Sequence record: MW749001.1
Direction: 5' to 3' (one strand)
Origin: Escherichia phage vB_EcoM_Kelasse
Length of the DNA stretch: 64,000 nucleotides
Made by a program: the position numbers and the translations under genes. Below, piece after piece: positions 25,428 through 35,258 of this stretch (its first letter is position 1; every line of letters begins with the position of its first letter). Under the pieces are notes generated by a model. It was not told where the DNA came from, searched no databases, and worked only from the letters and a program-made list of their open reading frames with translations.

Positions 25428-25901
25428 TTATTTGAATGATTTGACGTACTGAATAGAACCTTTACTATTCACGAAAGCGATTTTACCATTTTTATTATAC
25501 ATGGTAGCAGTACGCTGATAGCCATAAGTTTGTTTACCAGATTGATAACCAACTAATGCGAAATTATCTTCACCCATTTTATTCTGTTTAGCGCGAATAC
25601 GTTCATGACCGTGTGCCATAAGAACCTTAGCATCACCAGTTGAAATTGATCTACGAGTTTTTTCATCTTCAACTGTATTAACAAAGTCGTCAAATGAATC
25701 AAATTTAGCATGGGATTTATTATACAGTTTTCCATCTACTGCATAATTATATCCCTGTACATCCATCTCAACTTCTGTACCATCATCCAATACAGCAGTG
25801 ATTTTTTGACCTTTTTTAAATTTCAAAAGATCAGTAAAAGATTCAGCAATAATTTGAGAATTAATAGCTGCTTCAGTGATAAATTCTTGATATGTTTTCA
25901 T
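25428..25901 (-). CDS. internal-protein candidate with capsid targeting sequence
   Basis: N-terminus MKTYQEFITEA matches the T4 internal-protein CTS (MKTYQEFIAE, gp21 protease site after the Glu); 157 aa. Confidence 0.6.
   Translation of the reverse strand: MKTYQEFITEAAINSQIIAESFTDLLKFKKGQKITAVLDDGTEVEMDVQGYNYAVDGKLYNKSHAKFDSFDDFVNTVEDEKTRRSISTGDAKVLMAHGHERIRAKQNKMGEDNFALVGYQSGKQTYGYQRTATMYNKNGKIAFVNSKGSIQYVKSFK

Positions 25902-26385: not shown

Positions 26386-26386
<1 letters not shown>
26345..26386 (-). promoter_or_regulatory. T4-type early promoter upstream of denV
   Basis: Minus-strand GTTTAC ... TACTATAC. Confidence 0.5.
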
Positions 26387-27188
<802 letters not shown>

Positions 27189-28880: not shown

Positions 28881-29433
28881 ATTTTTCTAATAATAAATCG
28901 CTTTCAAAATTAGGATTTTCCACGAATTTATCAAAAAGATCATCAACGATAGTTAAGATATTCTTTTTATTAAGAATACGCTTATTTTCATATTTTGTTT
29001 CAGAGTCAACTATAAGAGTAAAGAAATATTTCTTTCCCTGAAATTTTACCGTAGTATCAATATATAACAAATTTGACTTTTGTAAATTACGTTTAAACCA
29101 TGCGTCACTTAAACTGTAAACGCCAAGATAATCATAATCGTCATTTAAATAACAAACTGTCCATTCAGGAGAAATGAAATCAGTAAATTCAACATCAAAA
29201 TCACACGTCAATGAATGAATTGATTCAATACTTTTAATGAGTATTCCAGGACGTATTAAAGACTTTTTACCTTTATAAAATCCAGAAAGACTTTCATCAG
29301 TTTCGTATGAAGACCCCCAATAGTAATTACGTCCTTCTGCCATACGTTTAAGAGCATTTAGTAATTGATCTGGAACATCAACCTGTCTTTGGAACTCTTC
29401 AAACATTGAATTGAAATCACTTTGCATTTTCAT
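28828..29433 (-). CDS. hypothetical protein (201 aa)
   Basis: ORF. Confidence 0.45.
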   Translation of the reverse strand: MKMQSDFNSMFEEFQRQVDVPDQLLNALKRMAEGRNYYWGSSYETDESLSGFYKGKKSLIRPGILIKSIESIHSLTCDFDVEFTDFISPEWTVCYLNDDYDYLGVYSLSDAWFKRNLQKSNLLYIDTTVKFQGKKYFFTLIVDSETKYENKRILNKKNILTIVDDLFDKFVENPNFESDLLLEKFVKECREYVKAITIPSK

Positions 29434-29451
29434 TCCTATTTACTCCAAGTA

Positions 29452-29468
29452 ATAGGGGCCGAAGCCCC
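29452..29468 (-). terminator. intercistronic UUCG stem-loop (weak terminator or mRNA-stabilising hairpin)
   Basis: GGGGCUUCGGCCCC between two co-directional genes; no clear U-run. Confidence 0.4.
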
Positions 29469-29474
29469 TTATCA

Positions 29475-30068
29475 TTATTTCAGAGAATTAATATATTCCT
29501 GGACATCGGCAGAGGTAGTTTCAACCCCAGAAATATTGCCGTTAAAAGTTTCAACTCGAGCAAGGGTATCTTCAATATCAACCTTAGTCAGTGCTGCAAT
29601 TTCAACTACATCATCGGCAGTACTAATTCCAAGGGCATTTGCCGCACGAGTTTCACGAATATATTCCAATTTAACTGCAAGTTCTTGGCGAGCATCATCT
29701 AACTCAACTACTTTCTTGGCGATTTCAATTCGCATTTCAGCATAACCGTCAGCTTTAGTAGTCAACTGCTCAGCTGTTCGGCGATATAGTAAACCGAGTT
29801 TAGCATGCATTGTTACATCTTGACCTTCGGAAAGAAGTTTTCGAATTTCACGCTCTTTTGATTCGGCCTGTCGATTCTTTTCGATAACAAGTTCACGAAT
29901 ACGTTTTTCTTCATTAATAGATTTAATAGAAGCAGTTTTTAGATCTTTAATTTTATCAAGTAGTTTTGCTGCTGCAGCAGTATACTGTTCTTCAACAGAT
30001 AGATTTTTAGCCATAGCAGAACCAAGTTTAGTGCGAATAAACTCAACAATTTTCTTCAGTGTGTTCAT
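29475..30068 (-). CDS. coiled-coil protein (197 aa)
   Basis: Almost entirely helical/charged sequence; loose resemblance to PspA/IM30-type proteins (unverified). Confidence 0.5.
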
Positions 30069-30125
30069 AGTATTTCCTTAGATTGATACAATTAGATAAT
30101 ATCACGTTTTTAATAGATTGTAAAC

Positions 30126-30461
30126 TTATTCTTCGTCTATCTCATCGATAAAGACGTCAATGGCCTCGATAACGGCATCATTGATAGCCAATAAAGTAAA
30201 ATCATCGTCAGTACCTTTATAAGATTCTGAAGCATTGATATATGCTTGATTGACGAGTTCCCAAGCCTTTTTAAAATAAGGAGTTTCATCATCAGGACAA
30301 ATATCCCGCACACCTTCAAAGATACGATTGGCATAATCTAACACCCATTGTACAGGCATGTTTTGAGAACGTTCGTTAAACTCTTTAAATTCCTTAGATT
30401 CAAAAAGCTCTTCAGGATAATAATTTCGATTACAAAAAGCTTTACTAAAGTTACGTTTCAT
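30126..30461 (-). CDS. hypothetical acidic protein (111 aa)
   Basis: ORF. Confidence 0.45.
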   Translation of the reverse strand: MKRNFSKAFCNRNYYPEELFESKEFKEFNERSQNMPVQWVLDYANRIFEGVRDICPDDETPYFKKAWELVNQAYINASESYKGTDDDFTLLAINDAVIEAIDVFIDEIDEE

Positions 30462-30516
30462 AATGTTCTCCTCAAGCTACAGGCTCATAATATCTCAATC
30501 ATGAGCCTGTGTAAAC

Positions 30517-30792
30517 TTATTTCATATTATTGAAATATTCTTCTGCGATTTCGTCGTTATCATGGTAAACTTTAGAAGACAGTTTAACATAACCTTCAGC
30601 AGTGAACATGTTAATCACAACTTTTACAGTATACCACTGACCGTCTTCATTACCCATTACTGCGTAAGTTTCAAACATCGGATGGTCAGGACCGATAACT
30701 TTAATATCATTCACTGTACGACCGAAATCTTCTGAAACGCATTTCATAAAGAAGTTGAACAGTTCGCCGTAATTATCCATTTCATTCTCCAA
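30517..30792 (-). CDS. hypothetical protein (91 aa)
   Basis: ORF immediately downstream of promoter-like element. Confidence 0.45.
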   Translation of the reverse strand: MENEMDNYGELFNFFMKCVSEDFGRTVNDIKVIGPDHPMFETYAVMGNEDGQWYTVKVVINMFTAEGYVKLSSKVYHDNDEIAEEYFNNMK

Positions 30793-30808
30793 GTTGTTTT
30801 CTGTATCA

Positions 30809-30832
30809 GTAGTTGATAGTTGTATAGTACCA
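30809..30832. repeat. 24-bp dispersed promoter-core repeat (copy 2)
   Basis: gtagttgatagttgtatagtacca, identical to 13580..13603. Confidence 0.85.
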
Positions 30833-30854
30833 TGGAAGAACAGGGATGTAAACC
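30812..30854 (-). promoter_or_regulatory. T4-type early promoter
   Basis: Minus-strand GTTTACA ... TACTATAC ... AACTATCAACTAC leader; near-identical to the element at 13585. Confidence 0.55.
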
Positions 30855-30986
30855 GTTTTGTGAAAAATTTTTTAAAAAGTTTTAGAGAATTCTAGGGAGG
30901 GAAGGGGCAATTAAAGGATAGGATAATATATTATAAAGGGTAGAAACTAAATGATGCCTAGAGAGGTCCAGAAAGGCCTAGATGCC

Positions 30987-31012
30987 AAAAAGCCCTATCA
31001 TTTAGATAGGGA
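30987..31012 (-). terminator. intrinsic terminator
   Basis: Minus-strand CCCUAUC-loop-GAUAGGG followed by CUUUUUGG. Confidence 0.5.
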
Positions 31013-31019
31013 TTTAAAA

Positions 31020-31583
31020 TTATTTATCTAGTTTAGTTATTATAGCTTCTGCGGCAGCTTTTAGCTTAGATGCGGTGTTAATACGATTTTTAATTTCAGT
31101 ATACGCATCGCCAAGAACATCAAGGCTATCAGAATAAACACTTACACTATTGCGTTCGCTATTTGAAATAGAACCTTTAGTTTTACGTTCAAAATCGGTG
31201 TACACGTCTTGAAGATCACGGGCTGCCTTCTTTGCATCATCCAATGCATCAAGAGCTTTATTCAAAGCATTAACATATTTTTTAGTGTCGAACATATTCT
31301 TAGAAATTTTAACAGGTGCACGTTCAGGAGTAGCTAAGGCAGATTTAGGAACCTGAGCGCCAGATGCCAATTTCTTAGAAATTTTGAAAAATGCTTTATT
31401 GAAACTATTTTCTTGACTCATCGTAAAAGAACTATTATCAATGTTATACATTTCAATAGCTTTAGCTTTCCACTTAAGAAAATCGCCACGGTCTTTTGGG
31501 TCCAAGTGGAAGAATACTTTAGTAAGATCTGCTTCAGATGGTAATTTTGCTGCTTCGGTTAAAAATTCGGCGTAGGTTTTCAT
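31020..31583 (-). CDS. internal-protein candidate with capsid targeting sequence (187 aa)
   Basis: N-terminus MKTYAEFLTEA (CTS-like); Lys/Ala-rich helical body. Confidence 0.6.
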   Translation of the reverse strand: MKTYAEFLTEAAKLPSEADLTKVFFHLDPKDRGDFLKWKAKAIEMYNIDNSSFTMSQENSFNKAFFKISKKLASGAQVPKSALATPERAPVKISKNMFDTKKYVNALNKALDALDDAKKAARDLQDVYTDFERKTKGSISNSERNSVSVYSDSLDVLGDAYTEIKNRINTASKLKAAAEAIITKLDK

Positions 31584-31666
31584 TTAAAATCCTTGAAATA
31601 ATTTATTGGTTATTAATTATTTATCACGTTGTTATATGTAACAGCATTCTCCGAGCGATTCAAACT

Positions 31667-31697
31667 AAAAAGCCCCAACCTTTCTGTCGGGGCTAAG
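31667..31697 (-). terminator. intrinsic terminator, repeat copy 1
   Basis: Minus-strand GCCCCGACAGAAAGGUUGGGGC + UUUUU; 30/31 identical to 32223..32253. Confidence 0.6.
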
Positions 31698-31701
31698 AAT
31701 G

Positions 31702-32175
31702 TTATTTAATTTGCTTAGCAGACCAAATGCGGTCTTTGATAATTTTTTGGATGTCTTCAACATACTCAAGAGAGTGAACATGTGGGTTATCTTTGAAACT
31801 ATAAGCACGAGCTAGCTTTTGGCCTTCAGTTTTGATTACTAAAAGCTCTTTAAGGATAGCTTCATATTTGGAGATAATTCCTTTAACAATATTTTTCTCT
31901 TGTGCGACTTTAGGATCTGCTTTAGGAGCAGGTTTACCAGAAGCCTTTGCAAAAGCAGCGCCAGTAGCAACTAAACTTTTCCAGGCCATACTAACTGCAT
32001 TTCCCGTAAATCCTTCCGCTTTCATGTCGCGTGCGAACTGGAATCGCGATTCATCAGAAGCATCTTTATAAGAATATTTACCCGCTGCAATGGCTGCTTT
32101 TGCGACAGCTTGAATTTCGGTGCTAGATGCTTCATTTAACACCGCTTCATTTAAAAATTGAGTATATGATTTCAT
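31702..32175 (-). CDS. internal-protein candidate with CTS-like N-terminus (157 aa)
   Basis: N-terminus MKSYTQFLNEA; gene flanked by two near-identical terminator copies. Confidence 0.55.
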   Translation of the reverse strand: MKSYTQFLNEAVLNEASSTEIQAVAKAAIAAGKYSYKDASDESRFQFARDMKAEGFTGNAVSMAWKSLVATGAAFAKASGKPAPKADPKVAQEKNIVKGIISKYEAILKELLVIKTEGQKLARAYSFKDNPHVHSLEYVEDIQKIIKDRIWSAKQIK

Positions 32176-32222
32176 CTTATTTCCTGTTTTAATTTGTAGA
32201 TTTAATATACTTATTTATACCA

Positions 32223-32253
32223 AAAAGCCCCAACCTTTCGGTCGGGGCTAAGC
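32223..32253 (-). terminator. intrinsic terminator, repeat copy 2
   Basis: Minus-strand GCCCCGACCGAAAGGUUGGGGC + UUUUU. Confidence 0.6.
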
Positions 32254-32255
32254 CT

Positions 32256-32460
32256 TGCGGCAACCTTGTCGGGGTTCCACCTGCTAAGGCAAGTGTTTGT
32301 ACGAAACGCCGGGATTCGAACCCGGTTATCAAGCAGTTGACGCTACTCAATATTTTTAAAAGGCCATATCTCGACCATATCCGAACGTTCCGTCAAAAAC
32401 GCTACTCGGCTTACGGCAAAGATATTTCCTCGAATCGATAATTCGGTGCGCCGTTTCTGC
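32256..32460 (-). ncRNA. candidate tRNA-like stable RNA(s) (T4 rnaC/rnaD-like)
   Basis: ORF-free 345-bp block next to the tRNA array; contains a canonical T-arm (CCGGGTTCGAATCCCGG on the minus strand) with a 6-bp acceptor-like pairing about 150 nt apart; ends in a terminator. Confidence 0.25.
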
Positions 32461-32560
32461 TGTGATATAAGGGGACATTAACAAAACATAAAGATTTATT
32501 AATGCCAGTCCTTAAACAGGGAACATCAGTCCGACGACTTACCGGTAGCGACCCGGTTTC

Positions 32561-32911
32561 TTAATATTCTTTTAAAGCATCAATCTGTTCACGGCGTTTA
32601 CGCCATAAATCAATTGCTTCATACGCAGATTCAGCATTTCGAATTTGACGGCATTTATATAAAGACTTGTGATTTTGATATTGCGTAGATAACGGAATTT
32701 TATCTAAAAGGTCTTTACGTTCAAAGTATTCGTAACCATCTAAGCCAAATGAACGATTTTTGAGAAATTGCCAATGACCATATTCGTTTTCAACATAAAC
32801 ATAATCCGCGTGTTGATAAAGCAAATTAATTACACGTTCAGAAATAACAGTGTCATTGTGATTAAAATAAAATGTTAAATCATGAACTACTAAATAAACA
32901 TTACCTTTCAT
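32561..32911 (-). CDS. hypothetical protein (116 aa)
   Basis: ORF immediately downstream of tRNA-Arg. Confidence 0.45.
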   Translation of the reverse strand: MKGNVYLVVHDLTFYFNHNDTVISERVINLLYQHADYVYVENEYGHWQFLKNRSFGLDGYEYFERKDLLDKIPLSTQYQNHKSLYKCRQIRNAESAYEAIDLWRKRREQIDALKEY

Positions 32912-32929
32912 ATTTTCCTCACTTATAAT

Positions 32930-33005
32930 TGGTCGAGGCAGTAGGGATCGAACCTACGACCTAGGACTTAGAAGGTCCTTGCTCTTCCTTCTGAGCTATG
33001 CCCCG
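32930..33005 (-). tRNA. tRNA-Arg (anticodon UCU)
   Basis: Hand-folded cloverleaf: 7-bp acceptor stem, T-arm GGTTCGATCC, anticodon loop CUUCUAA, CCA encoded. Confidence 0.8.
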
Positions 33006-33009
33006 TAAT

Positions 33010-33085
33010 TGGGGTGACCGATGGGAGTCGAACCCATGACTACGAGAATCACAATCTCGAGTTCTACCAACTGAACTACGGCCAC
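33010..33085 (-). tRNA. tRNA-His (anticodon GUG)
   Basis: Cloverleaf with anticodon loop UUGUGAU, T-loop TTCGACT, discriminator C as expected for tRNA-His. Confidence 0.7.
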
Positions 33086-33199
33086 ATTAATACCTACTCC
33101 AACAATCAAGATGTCTTCACACGAAATTAAGAGAAGAGTGATCAGTTCAACCCTTATAATCGCGTCAAGTAGATATTAATGTGACAGTTGTCACAAATT

Positions 33200-33274
33200 T
33201 GGCGGACGTGATAGGATTCGAACCTATAACCAATCGCTTAACAGGCGATCGCTCTGCCATTGAGCTACACATCC
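33200..33274 (-). tRNA. tRNA-Asn (anticodon GUU)
   Basis: Perfect anticodon stem ATCGC/GCGAT with loop CUGUUAA; T-arm ATAGGTTCGAATCCTAT. Confidence 0.75.
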
Positions 33275-33278
33275 AAAT

Positions 33279-33365
33279 TGGTGGGGAGTGATGGAGTCGA
33301 ACCACCCGAGTCGCAATGACAATGAATTTACAGTCCACACCGCTACCTCTACGGGATAACTCCCC
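33279..33365 (-). tRNA. tRNA-Tyr (anticodon GUA), long variable arm
   Basis: 87-nt cloverleaf; loop CUGUAAA; variable arm GTCATTGCGAC resembles E. coli tRNA-Tyr; anticodon stem has two G-U pairs. Confidence 0.6.
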
Positions 33366-33371
33366 TTAATT

Positions 33372-33446
33372 TGGTGGCCCTGGGTGGAATTGAACCACCA
33401 TCTGGCGATTATGAGTCGCTTGCTTGAACCTTCCAGCTACAGGGCC
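33372..33446 (-). tRNA. tRNA with anticodon CAU (Ile2-type or Met)
   Basis: Cloverleaf with loop CUCAUAA; 7-bp acceptor GGCCCTG/CAGGGCC. Confidence 0.7.
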
Positions 33447-33447
33447 T

Positions 33448-33523
33448 TGGTGCTGATTGACGGAATCGAACCGCCGACATCCTCATTACAAGTGAGGTGC
33501 TCTACCTACTGAGCTAAATCAGC
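33448..33523 (-). tRNA. tRNA-Thr (anticodon UGU)
   Basis: Cloverleaf with loop CUUGUAA; T-arm GGCGGTTCGATTCCGTC. Confidence 0.8.
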
Positions 33524-33528
33524 AAAAC

Positions 33529-33618
33529 TGGCGGAGGCGATAGGATTTGAACCTATGAGTCGCCGGAGCGACTGCCGGTTTTCAAGACCGGTGCATTAAA
33601 CCACTCTGCCACGCCTCC
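33529..33618 (-). tRNA. tRNA-Ser (anticodon UGA), long variable arm
   Basis: 90-nt type II cloverleaf; anticodon stem CCGGT/ACCGG, loop CUUGAAA. Confidence 0.8.
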
Positions 33619-33620
33619 AG

Positions 33621-33694
33621 TCTCCATACAAGGATTTGAACCTTGGACCTCCTGATCCCAAATCAGGCGCTCTACCAAACTGAGCTACACGGAG
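33621..33694 (-). tRNA. tRNA-Pro (anticodon UGG), CCA not encoded
   Basis: Loop UUUGGGA; only 2 nt separate its 3' end from tRNA-Ser, as in the T4 Pro-Ser dimeric precursor. Confidence 0.8.
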
Positions 33695-33704
33695 TAAATT
33701 AAAT

Positions 33705-33778
<74 letters not shown>

Positions 33779-33783
33779 AAATT

Positions 33784-33870
33784 TGGTGCGAGAAGTGGGA
33801 CTCGAACCCACAAGGAAATCATTCCGCAGCATTTTAAGTGCTGTGCCTTTACCAATTTGACCATTCTCGC
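33784..33870 (-). tRNA. tRNA-Leu (anticodon UAA), long variable arm
   Basis: 87 nt; loop CUUAAAA; GCGAGAAUGGUCAAAUUGGUAAAGG... matches T4 tRNA-Leu as I recall it. Confidence 0.85.
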
Positions 33871-33871
33871 G

Positions 33872-33944
33872 CTGGGAATAAAGGACTCGAACCTTTGCAT
33901 CTAGCAGTCAAAGTGCTATGCCTTACCAACTTGGCTAATTCCCA
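33872..33944 (-). tRNA. tRNA-Gln (anticodon UUG), CCA not encoded
   Basis: Perfect 7-bp acceptor stem TGGGAAT/ATTCCCA; loop CUUUGAC; abuts tRNA-Leu as in the T4 Gln-Leu precursor. Confidence 0.8.
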
Positions 33945-34041
33945 ATTATTAACAAAGGCTCTCAAACAAGAACCCTTGATGATAGAGGGTATTAATCAGT
34001 GCGGTATGAGTTAATAATAACAAATAATTCTTAAAGCATAT

Positions 34042-34329
34042 TTACCATTTATGATAATACATATTTACGATGCATTCAAGACCCAAAGGATTCTTGAAAA
34101 TATCATATTCAAGAGGACCTTTTTCTGTTTCAATAAAGAAATCAAAATTTACTGTATTAAATTTACGGTCTTCCTTCACTAATTTAACTTGAGAAGATGA
34201 ACGGTCAACATAAACCTTTTCAACTTCAAAACATGTTAAAACGCCATAATCATCAATCAAGGCTTTAGCCGCGTCTTGATCATATTTATATCCATTTTCA
34301 ATGGATGATACTTTAGCATAAAGAATCAT
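34042..34329 (-). CDS. hypothetical protein (95 aa)
   Basis: ORF. Confidence 0.45.
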   Translation of the reverse strand: MILYAKVSSIENGYKYDQDAAKALIDDYGVLTCFEVEKVYVDRSSSQVKLVKEDRKFNTVNFDFFIETEKGPLEYDIFKNPLGLECIVNMYYHKW

Positions 34330-34331
34330 TA

Positions 34332-34751
34332 TCAGCCTTCATCAACAATAGTATGAGTGTGGGCATTTACAATTTGCCACCAATCAAAGCGATTAGAACC
34401 ATACATCGGTTTGTTTTCATTTTCTTTGATAATATCACGGAGTTCATCTTCGGTAGCGGCTTTCGCGATTAAATCAGCATATCCACCACGAGGATAATAA
34501 TTATCACCTGCAAAAAGTAAAAAGTTTGGTTTAATATTATTAAACTCTTCAAGAGTAATAACTGTTCCACCAGGTTGAGCAATATCTACATAACTATATC
34601 CTAATTTTTGAGCAGCATCTACTGCTTCAAGCAGGGTATCATGAGCCCATCCAATTTGGCAATCTGGCTTTTCAGATGGATTAGCCTGATAATCCGCGTA
34701 CACTTTATACATTCTATTCACCTTTAGAAATTTTATCCATAACGATAGCAA
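34332..34751 (-). CDS. hypothetical protein (139 aa, start may be internal)
   Basis: ORF. Confidence 0.45.
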   Translation of the reverse strand: MLSLWIKFLKVNRMYKVYADYQANPSEKPDCQIGWAHDTLLEAVDAAQKLGYSYVDIAQPGGTVITLEEFNNIKPNFLLFAGDNYYPRGGYADLIAKAATEDELRDIIKENENKPMYGSNRFDWWQIVNAHTHTIVDEG

Positions 34752-34899
34752 TTAAACCAATTAAAAATGCTACTACAAGTGAAAAAACATTTTCTGCTGT
34801 AGTCAATAATCCGCATATAAATCCAACAAACATTGAAAAACTAAAAGCGGAAGCAGAAATTGCAATAGCAACATTTCGAATTAATTCACAACGTTTCAT
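34714..34899 (-). CDS. small membrane protein (61 aa)
   Basis: Hydrophobic over most of its length; downstream of promoter-like element. Confidence 0.35.
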   Translation of the reverse strand: MKRCELIRNVAIAISASAFSFSMFVGFICGLLTTAENVFSLVVAFLIGLIAIVMDKISKGE

Positions 34900-34906
34900 T
34901 TTATTC

Positions 34907-34930
34907 TCCTCGGTAGTTGATAGGGTAATA
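34907..34930. repeat. 24-bp direct repeat flanking ipI (copy 1)
   Basis: ttgatagggtaatagtatcactac, identical to 35217..35240. Confidence 0.85.
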
Positions 34931-34948
34931 GTATCACTACCCTATCTA
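34912..34948 (-). promoter_or_regulatory. T4-type early promoter downstream of ipI
   Basis: Minus-strand GTTTACT ... TACTAT. Confidence 0.5.
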
Positions 34949-34957
34949 AAAGTAAAC

Positions 34958-35191
34958 TTATTTTTTACGAAAAATTGATTTATATTTATCAGCCCATTTC
35001 TCAATGACTTTTGCCGGGCCATAGATAACAAAGTAATCGCCAAACTCTTCACCACCGAGTTGACCGAAATCATCTAATGCATCACGAAGAACTCCATGAG
35101 GCATTTCACCCATTTTATCTTTCTTGCCAGTGTAAATAAACTCAACTTTTACATCAGCAGTTTCAGCAATAAATTCTTGATACGTTTTCAT
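34958..35191 (-). CDS. ipI: internal protein I
   Basis: MKTYQEFIAE CTS followed by VKVEFIYTGKKDKMGEMPHGVLRDALDDFGQLGGEEFGDYFVIYGPAKV..., recognised as T4 IPI; start placed at internal Met of the ORF-track frame. Confidence 0.85.
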   Translation of the reverse strand: MKTYQEFIAETADVKVEFIYTGKKDKMGEMPHGVLRDALDDFGQLGGEEFGDYFVIYGPAKVIEKWADKYKSIFRKK

Positions 35192-35216: not shown

Positions 35217-35240
35217 TTGATAGGGTAATAGTATCACTAC
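35217..35240. repeat. 24-bp direct repeat flanking ipI (copy 2)
   Basis: ttgatagggtaatagtatcactac, identical to 34907..34930. Confidence 0.85.
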
Positions 35241-35250
35241 TAAAACCCCA

Positions 35251-35258
<8 letters not shown>
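35222..35258 (-). promoter_or_regulatory. T4-type early promoter upstream of ipI
   Basis: Minus-strand GTTTACA ... TACTAT, then GGAGAA and the ipI ATG. Confidence 0.6.

Follow-up and report, generated by a model that had tools for sequence, protein, structure and literature searches.

The interval between rnaC and e.8 in Escherichia phage vB_EcoM_Kelasse, referred to below as the slot, is very likely an array of swappable gene cassettes bounded by transcription terminators, in which a nearly identical repeat around one open reading frame (ORF1) allows this gene to be lost or gained by recombination. The window analysed is a stretch of 64,000 nucleotides of this phage (sequence record MW749001.1). 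The locus belongs to Tequatrovirus, the T4-like phages, and its closest match over positions 30900-33000 was Escherichia phage JLBYU22 with 99.6 % identity. All features lie on the minus strand, in the transcription order 11-tRNA cluster, an ORF of 116 amino acids, rnaD, rnaC, repeat copy A, ORF1, repeat copy B, ORF2, terminator C, e.8, e.7 and e.6 (Table 1). A pattern search allowing up to three mismatches returned exactly two matches to the 31-nt repeat in the window, copies B and A, and no match arose in 100 dinucleotide-preserving shuffles. Relatives with the window arrangement carry the repeat at only two places per genome. Thirty of the 31 positions are identical, the sole mismatch being T/G at position 19, and the start-to-start distance from copy B to copy A is 555 bp. 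A weaker similarity stretches leftwards to 40 nt with 90 % identity (31658-31697 versus 32213-32252). Copy B is located 4 nt from the stop codon of ORF1, and copy A starts 46 nt upstream of its ATG. The initial annotation of this DNA had reported such a repeat pair with one mismatch around ORF1, and the search bore it out. Its notation "(c/g)(t/g)" for the variable part suggests two differing positions where one T/G difference exists, and its coordinates held to within one base: the spacing had been given as 556 bp, and the end of the stretch from copy B to copy A is 32252 instead of 32253. It had also stated that a repeat present at every terminator of the genome would speak against a cassette; the two copies per genome are the opposite of this.

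Both copies have the sequence of an intrinsic terminator, as had been proposed in the initial annotation. On the coding strand a GC-rich hairpin of 9-10 bp is followed directly by UUUUU, each copy closing a transcription unit of the same strand, and a consensus terminator scan called the two of them. Copy A has a GAAA loop and one G-U pair. The centroid hairpins had energies of -16.3 kcal/mol (copy B) and -20.1 kcal/mol (copy A) at a z-score of about -3.2; the 31-nt cores folded alone gave -16.3 and -20.3 kcal/mol, respectively. Both copies therefore probably function as transcription terminators. The small stable RNAs rnaD and rnaC end the tRNA transcription unit, and copy A, 47 nt after rnaC, is the end of this unit. 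Since T4 has the same sequence once and at the same distance after rnaC, copy A is regarded as the native terminator of the tRNA-rnaD-rnaC unit. Terminator C has only AAAAAGCCC in common with copies A and B (CCAAAAAGCCC with copy A).

Behind copy A follows the sequence TATAAATA, the T4 late-promoter consensus. Its ATAAATA core was invariant in 15 aligned genomes, distant relatives included. ORF2 is likewise preceded by a conserved (G/A)ATAAATA (31625-31618), and ATAAATAATTAATAAC was invariant in nine genomes of two genera. The late-promoter call is based on position and conservation, not on enrichment: over the whole window TATAAATA was found 15 times against 10.4 expected, which is not significant. 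A scan of the minus strand for a sigma-70-like early promoter detected no -35/-10 pair in 31584-31666 or 32176-32221. The ATAAATA cores may act as late promoters of ORF1 and ORF2.

Table 1 Features at and around the slot; terminator and promoter roles are predicted
Feature	Position	Strand	Remarks
tRNA cluster	33944-32930	-	11 tRNAs
116-aa ORF	32561-32911	-	phrog_3355, labelled unknown function; between tRNA-Arg and rnaD
rnaD	32445-32564	-	aligned to annotated T4 rnaD
rnaC	32300-32438	-	aligned to annotated T4 rnaC
rnaC 3' trailer	32253-32299	-	same trailer in T4
Terminator copy A	32222-32252	-	AAAAAGCCCCAACCTTTCGGTCGGGGCTAAG; native rnaC terminator; RNA AGCCCCGACC-GAAA-GGUUGGGGCU then UUUUU
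Late-promoter consensus TATAAATA	32212-32219	-	2 nt behind the copy A U-run; ORF1 ATG follows 36 nt downstream
Shine-Dalgarno-like AGGAAA	32180-32185	-	upstream of ORF1; from sequence, conserved in alignment
ORF1	31702-32175	-	157 aa; MKSYTQFLNEA...
Terminator copy B	31667-31697	-	AAAAAGCCCCAACCTTTCTGTCGGGGCTAAG; closes ORF1 unit; hairpin and U-run, -16.3 kcal/mol
Late-promoter-like GATAAATA	31618-31625	-	upstream of ORF2; ATAAATA core conserved
ORF2	31020-31583	-	187 aa; MKTYAEFLTE/AAKL...
Terminator C	30987-31011	-	closes ORF2 unit; CCCUAUC-UAAAU-GAUAGGG then CUUUUU
e.8 upstream region and e.8	30517-30986	-	conserved downstream anchor of the slot

The comparison with related phages revealed four states of the slot. 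The region 30780-32330 matched 686 records, from which 60 rows were sampled evenly down the ranking. Both ORFs (query coverage 100 %) were present in 11 of these rows, only ORF2 (66-67 %) in three, only ORF1 (about 57 %) in approximately 22 and neither ORF (21 %) in seven. In total, 127 records had a query coverage of 80 % or more, which corresponds to the class with both ORFs. From representative loci all terminators were taken out with their flanks, the left flanks being e.8 or the upstream regions of ORF2 or ORF1, the right flanks being the ends of ORF2 or ORF1 or rnaC. In T4 and PST a single terminator copy of the rnaC type lies directly between rnaC and the upstream region of e.8, with no ORF. 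Many Tequatroviruses, among them NBG2, RB68, ES12, 235Ecol030PP and locus L015, have ORF1 only, with one rnaC-type terminator between e.8 and the end of ORF1 and another between the ORF1 upstream region and rnaC. ORF2 only, with terminator C on the e.8 side and an rnaC-type terminator between the ORF2 upstream region and rnaC, was present in Killian and G4498 of Tequatrovirus and in RB69 of Mosigvirus. Both ORFs occur in the window, G50, F26 and the loci L014 and L016: terminator C lies between e.8 and the end of ORF2, and rnaC-type terminators lie between the ORF2 upstream region and the end of ORF1 and between the ORF1 upstream region and rnaC. As the two presence/absence characters occur in all four combinations, at least one recombination or repeated gain and loss has to be assumed. 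The four states are found again in the sister genus Mosigvirus: RB69 has ORF2 only, KMB38 ORF1 only, and PhAPEC2 and locus L019 have both.

In the loci read from Tequatrovirus and Mosigvirus, every junction among the four states falls at a terminator. The junction of the genomes with ORF2 only, from the ORF2 upstream flank through the terminator to the rnaC trailer, is an exact hybrid of copies A and B of a genome of the window type. Shfl2, IME340, WL-3 and others had this junction in one-piece matches, in 15 records among the matches listed or about a dozen distinct phages. Junction counts refer to one-piece matches and the spread sample, since probes of 121 nt were confounded by the joining of pieces up to ~560 bp apart; a scan of IMG/VR contributed only 8 loci. 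The T4 junction is in turn an exact hybrid of the two copies in a genome with ORF1 only. On the e.8 side, the homology between T4 and the window stops inside the stretch common to terminator C and copy A. The slot of the Mosigvirus phage LF82-1 (L005 3338-3964) holds a different ORF of 208 amino acids with its own terminator and a capsid-targeting-like N-terminus (MYTFNEFLAETEV...), and the homology with KMB38 resumes exactly at the rnaC terminator. Copy A is the upstream boundary of all variation at the slot. The C-terminal motif DTPDLY of the LF82-1 protein is also present in Yersinia and Klebsiella phage proteins that are related to ORF1 but longer (P0009, P0010), which hints at domain shuffling among these proteins. 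Thus, the T-even comparison turned out as the initial annotation had predicted for a cassette exchanged between regulatory repeats: a single terminator without an ORF exists in T4 and PST, and the deletion product is seen as the hybrid junction of phages with ORF2 only.

We propose that the repeat consists of the intrinsic terminator of the tRNA-rnaD-rnaC unit and a second copy that closes the next gene. A cassette would begin with a terminator and an ATAAATA late-promoter core, continue with a ribosome-binding site and an ORF whose N-terminus is capsid-targeting-like, and end in a second terminator; the window would contain two such cassettes, ORF1 and ORF2, with the terminators as module boundaries. 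If crossing over or template switching joined copy A to copy B, within one molecule or by unequal exchange, ORF1 would be deleted and one terminator left. ORF1 could also be gained, through recombination with a co-infecting donor or with an excised circle carrying one copy. The cassette of ORF2 may have joined via the shorter stretch AAAAAGCCC (CCAAAAAGCCC with copy A) shared with terminator C. A general homologous or microhomology pathway of the phage may perform the recombination; the comparisons locate the joints and say nothing on the enzymatic pathway. Laboratory populations of T4 showed deletions and amplifications between microhomologies of 6-10 bp, including a loss of ipIII together with the loss of a host (PMC9391042). 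Because T4 recombines at repeats of 6-10 bp, a direct repeat of 31-40 bp around a dispensable 0.5-kb gene is an obvious substrate. In T4-type phages, ORFs bounded by regulatory repeats are shuffled and excised mini-circles are formed (PMC2839356; PMC4122927). The proposed mechanism is plausible and has good precedents.

Sequence identities between the genera support a movement of cassettes. The nucleotide identity of ORF2 between Tequatrovirus and Mosigvirus was 96-97 %, whereas between the same genera ORF1 reached about 75 %, the 116-aa ORF 66-79 % and e.8 88-95 %. The values for ORF2 and ORF1 indicate a recent lateral transfer. The genes neighbouring ORF2 were 66-88 % identical in comparisons with PhAPEC2 (L012) and RB69 (L013). 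In a sliding window against PhAPEC2 the identity rose to at least 95 % at terminator C and fell between the start of ORF2 and terminator B. Due to these identity steps near the terminators, the ORF2 cassette has crossed the genera recently as a terminator-bounded block. The ORF1 and rnaC/rnaD sequences of the window were nearest to RB68, a phage with ORF1 only (98.3 % and 99.7 %, respectively), and the other genomes with two ORFs had 94-96 %. The window thus looks recombinant, with a slot state that does not follow the local phylogeny.

The two copies vary in different degrees. In the 12 Tequatrovirus genomes read that carry ORF1, copy A had the standard sequence in 11. The distal copy was standard in four, had one to three changes in seven (G50 and F26 are one base short) and was flipped in one, ES12. 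In every variant, with energies of -16 to -20.6 kcal/mol, G-U or A-U changes on one arm leave the stem intact, which points to selection for termination rather than to strong homogenisation. Both copies of the Mosigvirus phages PhAPEC2 and KMB38 have a genus-specific arm, GGAAGGGGC, a pattern that fits conversion and independent duplication alike. This variation bears on the possibility that the repeat is passive, i.e. that the copies resemble each other only as good terminators, and that insertions and deletions arose by other means, such as illegitimate joining or exchange in the conserved flanks during co-infection, with the terminators carried along where transcription units end. Selection for termination predicts a 9-10 bp stem kept through changes on one arm, as observed in all natural variants, the rnaC and e.8 flanks are with 93-100 % conservation sufficient to move any slot allele, and distant relatives have another terminator after ORF1. 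Termination, however, needs neither an identical loop nor the same G-U position nor the CTAAG flank. Moreover, such passive copies do not explain the exact hybrid junctions of the phages with ORF2 only and of T4, and in every comparison of alternative cassettes the homology starts or stops within few bases of the hairpin. A passive repeat is therefore considered unlikely.

Several observations nevertheless weigh against repeat-mediated exchange of the cassettes. The loci L017, L018 and L020, with ORF1 75-81 % identical, have a different terminator, AAAGCCCCGUCUGGGGCUUUUU, after the gene. Hence the repeat is not obligatory to the gene and the duplicated copy is restricted to lineages; the absence of flanking repeats, a further objection foreseen in the initial annotation, applies to these relatives and not to the close ones, which keep the repeats. 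The greater variability of the distal copy compared with copy A speaks for weak homogenisation. The evidence for deletion and insertion is comparative, and the roles of promoters and terminators are predicted. The slot states could spread via the conserved flanks rnaC and e.8 alone, the repeats being needed then for founding events only. Finally, among the matches listed the genome records annotate ORF1 and ORF2 as hypothetical or "Phage" protein or not at all.

Two terminators were found flipped in place. The distal terminator of ES12 (L004 3453-3483) has the stem-loop reverse-complemented between unchanged flanks, GCCCCGACC-AAAA-GGTTGGGGC, and in terminator C of L019 (1076-1106 in window orientation) the loop is inverted from ATTTA to TAAAT. 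This suggests an inversion between the hairpin arms or template switching. Palindromes with recombinational or replicative activity, as these flips show, would suit a conversion driven by an endonuclease, either SegB from the adjacent tRNA region or a nuclease acting on the hairpin or cruciform, with co-conversion of the slot during break repair. In T4, PST and Killian segB or another nuclease gene adjoins tRNA-Arg, while the window has no room for segB, and Comeau et al. (PMC4122927) cite a preferential inheritance of the T4 tRNA region promoted by SegB. This process accounts for the spread of a state but not for joints inside a terminator. In the few loci read, the states with ORF1 only and with ORF2 only were both present with as well as without a nuclease gene nearby, and we regard the endonuclease as an improbable cause of the pattern. 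Within the exchange at the repeats, SegB may bias which slot allele is inherited in mixed infections, affecting the spread of a state and not the position of the joint. A related and rather doubtful thought is that the rnaC terminator is a preferred landing site, a nicked or replication-stalling hairpin or cruciform that recruits cassettes of injected anti-defence genes to the region directly behind the tRNA/rnaC operon. If this were true, the T-even phages would possess a third platform for internal-protein genes, similar to an integron, and the flips in ES12 and L019 would be footprints of its activity. F26 (L006) has a perfect tandem duplication with a period of 350 bp (1358-1657 and 1708-2007, 300 nt at 100 %) that runs from the e.8 upstream region across terminator C into the 3' end of ORF2; the duplication is very recent or results from an assembly artefact.

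ORF1 and ORF2 are candidates for internal proteins. ORF1 starts with MKSYTQFLNE/AVLNE/A and ORF2 with MKTYAEFLTE/A, compared with MKTYQEFIAE of T4 IPIII; T4 IPI was also compared. In both, an N-terminal targeting sequence of about ten residues ends in the L/I-x-E site of the prohead protease, as a sequence match. T4 internal proteins are directed into the prohead by this motif, the capsid targeting sequence (PMC3012670; PMC9391042). The product of ORF1 is probably an internal protein that is injected. ORF1 and ORF2 would be taken up into the head, cut by the prohead protease behind L-x-E and injected as host-specific counter-defence proteins. The initial annotation had called ORF1 an internal protein with a capsid targeting sequence: such an N-terminus is present, and the label derives from this motif. 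ORF1 was found in 511 phage records and ORF2 in 164, with one copy each; ORF2 has 95-99 % amino acid identity, the Mosigvirus phages RB69 and PhAPEC2 included. Thirteen relatives in a large protein database were all unnamed or called hypothetical. For both ORFs, Pfam gave nothing above threshold and sequence searches against PDB no match. The AlphaFold model of ORF1 is all-helical (pLDDT 73, pTM 0.40), and its Foldseek comparison with PDB yielded no match with an E-value below 1. ORF2 had no significant similarity to the longer relatives of Klebsiella phages. ORF1 is shortened to 111 amino acids in F26 (L006 2796-3131), 235Ecol030PP (L009 780-1115) and SfPhi01 (P0006), thus the gene is decaying in some lineages. 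In RB69 ORF2 is split into the two ORFs 148c and 149c, probably due to a frameshift.

An in-place tandem duplication of terminator and internal-protein gene followed by divergence, with the repeat as a relic, would also place two such genes next to each other. ORF1 and ORF2 each match phrog_2280 ("unknown function") over the full length, and their 5' ends with the ribosome-binding regions show a similarity of about 70 % over 42 nt, with similar spacing. However, in BLASTP and in the profile comparison by hhalign only the first 11-12 residues of the two proteins aligned, on which ground a paralogy of ORF1 and ORF2 by tandem duplication was rejected, and the motif in these residues is common to all five ORFs of the window that carry it. 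The terminator of ORF2 itself, terminator C, is dissimilar, while the nearly identical pair brackets ORF1. Genomes with ORF1 only, with ORF2 only and with neither all exist, and an old event in place cannot explain the identity of 96-97 % for ORF2 against about 75 % for ORF1 across the genera. The duplication is thus highly improbable. Of the five ORFs in the window with a capsid-targeting-like motif, the three others are located at the classical positions of internal proteins, adjoining denV and e and between 57B and trna.4. Two of them, 25428-25901 and 26386-26667, flank denV near gene e (the ipII/ipIII locus). The third, 34958-35191 at the ipI position, starts with MKTYQEFIAE... and belongs to phrog_8111, internal virion protein. 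At the DNA level, the 5' coding ends of the five ORFs belong to a single repeat family, another possible recombination substrate.

The region upstream of the slot differs from T4 in gene content. The window has 11 tRNAs, with His, Asn, Tyr and Met/Ile2 added, in comparison to eight in T4, and lacks segB; the 116-aa ORF sits where T4 has nothing. The rnaC/rnaD region is 93-100 % conserved across the genera. At the gathering thresholds, Rfam detected only tRNAs in 30000-35000, the terminator, rnaC and rnaD belonging to no family. The rnaC trailer contains at 32259-32275, 10 nt from copy A, the sequence CAACCTTGTCGGGG, a partial copy of the terminator core (CAACCTTTCGGTCGGGG), which may be left over from an earlier duplication or may offer an alternative partner for pairing. 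A paper on an evolved T4-like phage (PMC12685909) touches on rnaC/rnaD but was dropped; it concerns a single-nucleotide polymorphism in rnaD and has no bearing on this locus.

Internal proteins enter the cell together with the DNA, and those that have been studied disarm defences of the host. IPI is active against GmrSD, and infection of strain ECOR17 requires IPIII. The set of internal proteins carried by a phage therefore helps to define its host range. The slot would add a third site for such genes, left unannotated in the genome records examined, with ORF1 and ORF2 as two candidate counter-defence genes. It also offers a clean natural case of a module boundary readable to the base, with a terminator as recombination joint. 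For therapeutic T4-like phages it is a warning, as ORF1 and ORF2 may be gained or lost by a simple repeat-mediated event.

The organisation resembles known systems of modular exchange in T-even phages. According to the account in PMC2839356, Repoila et al. 1994 (EMBO J 13:4181) described a conserved motif of early promoter and stem-loop that flanks the internal-protein genes at two T-even loci and proposed recombinational shuffling. Those brackets and the slot have in common small non-essential ORFs with a conserved N-terminal leader between repeated regulatory motifs, and a number, order and identity of ORFs that vary among close relatives. The repeats differ: in the motif of Repoila et al. 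a weak AT-rich stem-loop accompanies a T4 early promoter (PMC2839356), while the slot has a strong GC-rich terminator and a late-promoter core, but no early promoter. A classical bracket of 41 nt with 80 % identity (34917-34957 and 35217-35257) is present in the window around the ORF at the ipI position, and this repeat includes a stem-loop and a T4 early promoter (GTTTAC ... TGATACTAT). The slot between rnaC and e.8 is located outside the two described loci for internal proteins (ipI; ipII/ipIII) and does not count as one of them.

The concept was generalised by Arbiol et al. 2010 (PMC2839356) and Comeau et al. 2014 (PMC4122927) to the PeSL and PmSL motifs, for which inverse PCR detected excised mini-circles. 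Such motifs combine terminator and promoter at the ORF boundaries of hyperplastic regions and are linked to insertions, deletions and replacements between sister phages, and a recombination between tandem copies has been proposed. The slot has likewise a stem-loop terminator at the ORF boundary in a hyperplastic region, and close relatives differ in the presence, absence or replacement of the ORFs between its copies, with four states and one replacement. In a PeSL a sigma-70-like early promoter adjoins the stem-loop, in a PmSL a Mot box; neither was next to copy A or B, the early promoter being defined as TTGACA/TTTACW, a 17-nt spacer and TATAAT/TAYWAT just downstream of the stem-loop. The slot repeat is therefore not a strict PeSL. 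In contrast to a PeSL, the homology shared by the two copies is the hairpin itself, their promoter parts being different. PST and T4, the T-even pair of the 2014 study, are both empty at the slot, so the case was invisible there. The microhomology deletions and amplifications of T4 (Srikant et al. 2022, PMC9391042, which also cites older studies of rII and of genes 16-18) are similar in that DNA between short direct repeats is lost and one copy is left, but they used fortuitous 6-10 bp matches in the laboratory, whereas the slot has a functional element of 31-40 bp in hundreds of natural genomes. The attC sites of integrons are an analogy only: single-gene modules delimited by imperfect palindromes downstream of a fixed platform. 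The slot cassettes, in contrast, carry their own promoter-like cores, their hairpins are predicted terminators, and exchange occurs most simply by homology; no integrase was recognisable among the ORFs listed for 29000-35000, and four scanned ORFs matched no such family. The principle is thus already known from Repoila et al. 1994 and the PeSL papers of 2010 and 2014; new are the locus, which would be a third site of the internal-protein type, the type of the repeat and two unannotated candidates for injected proteins.

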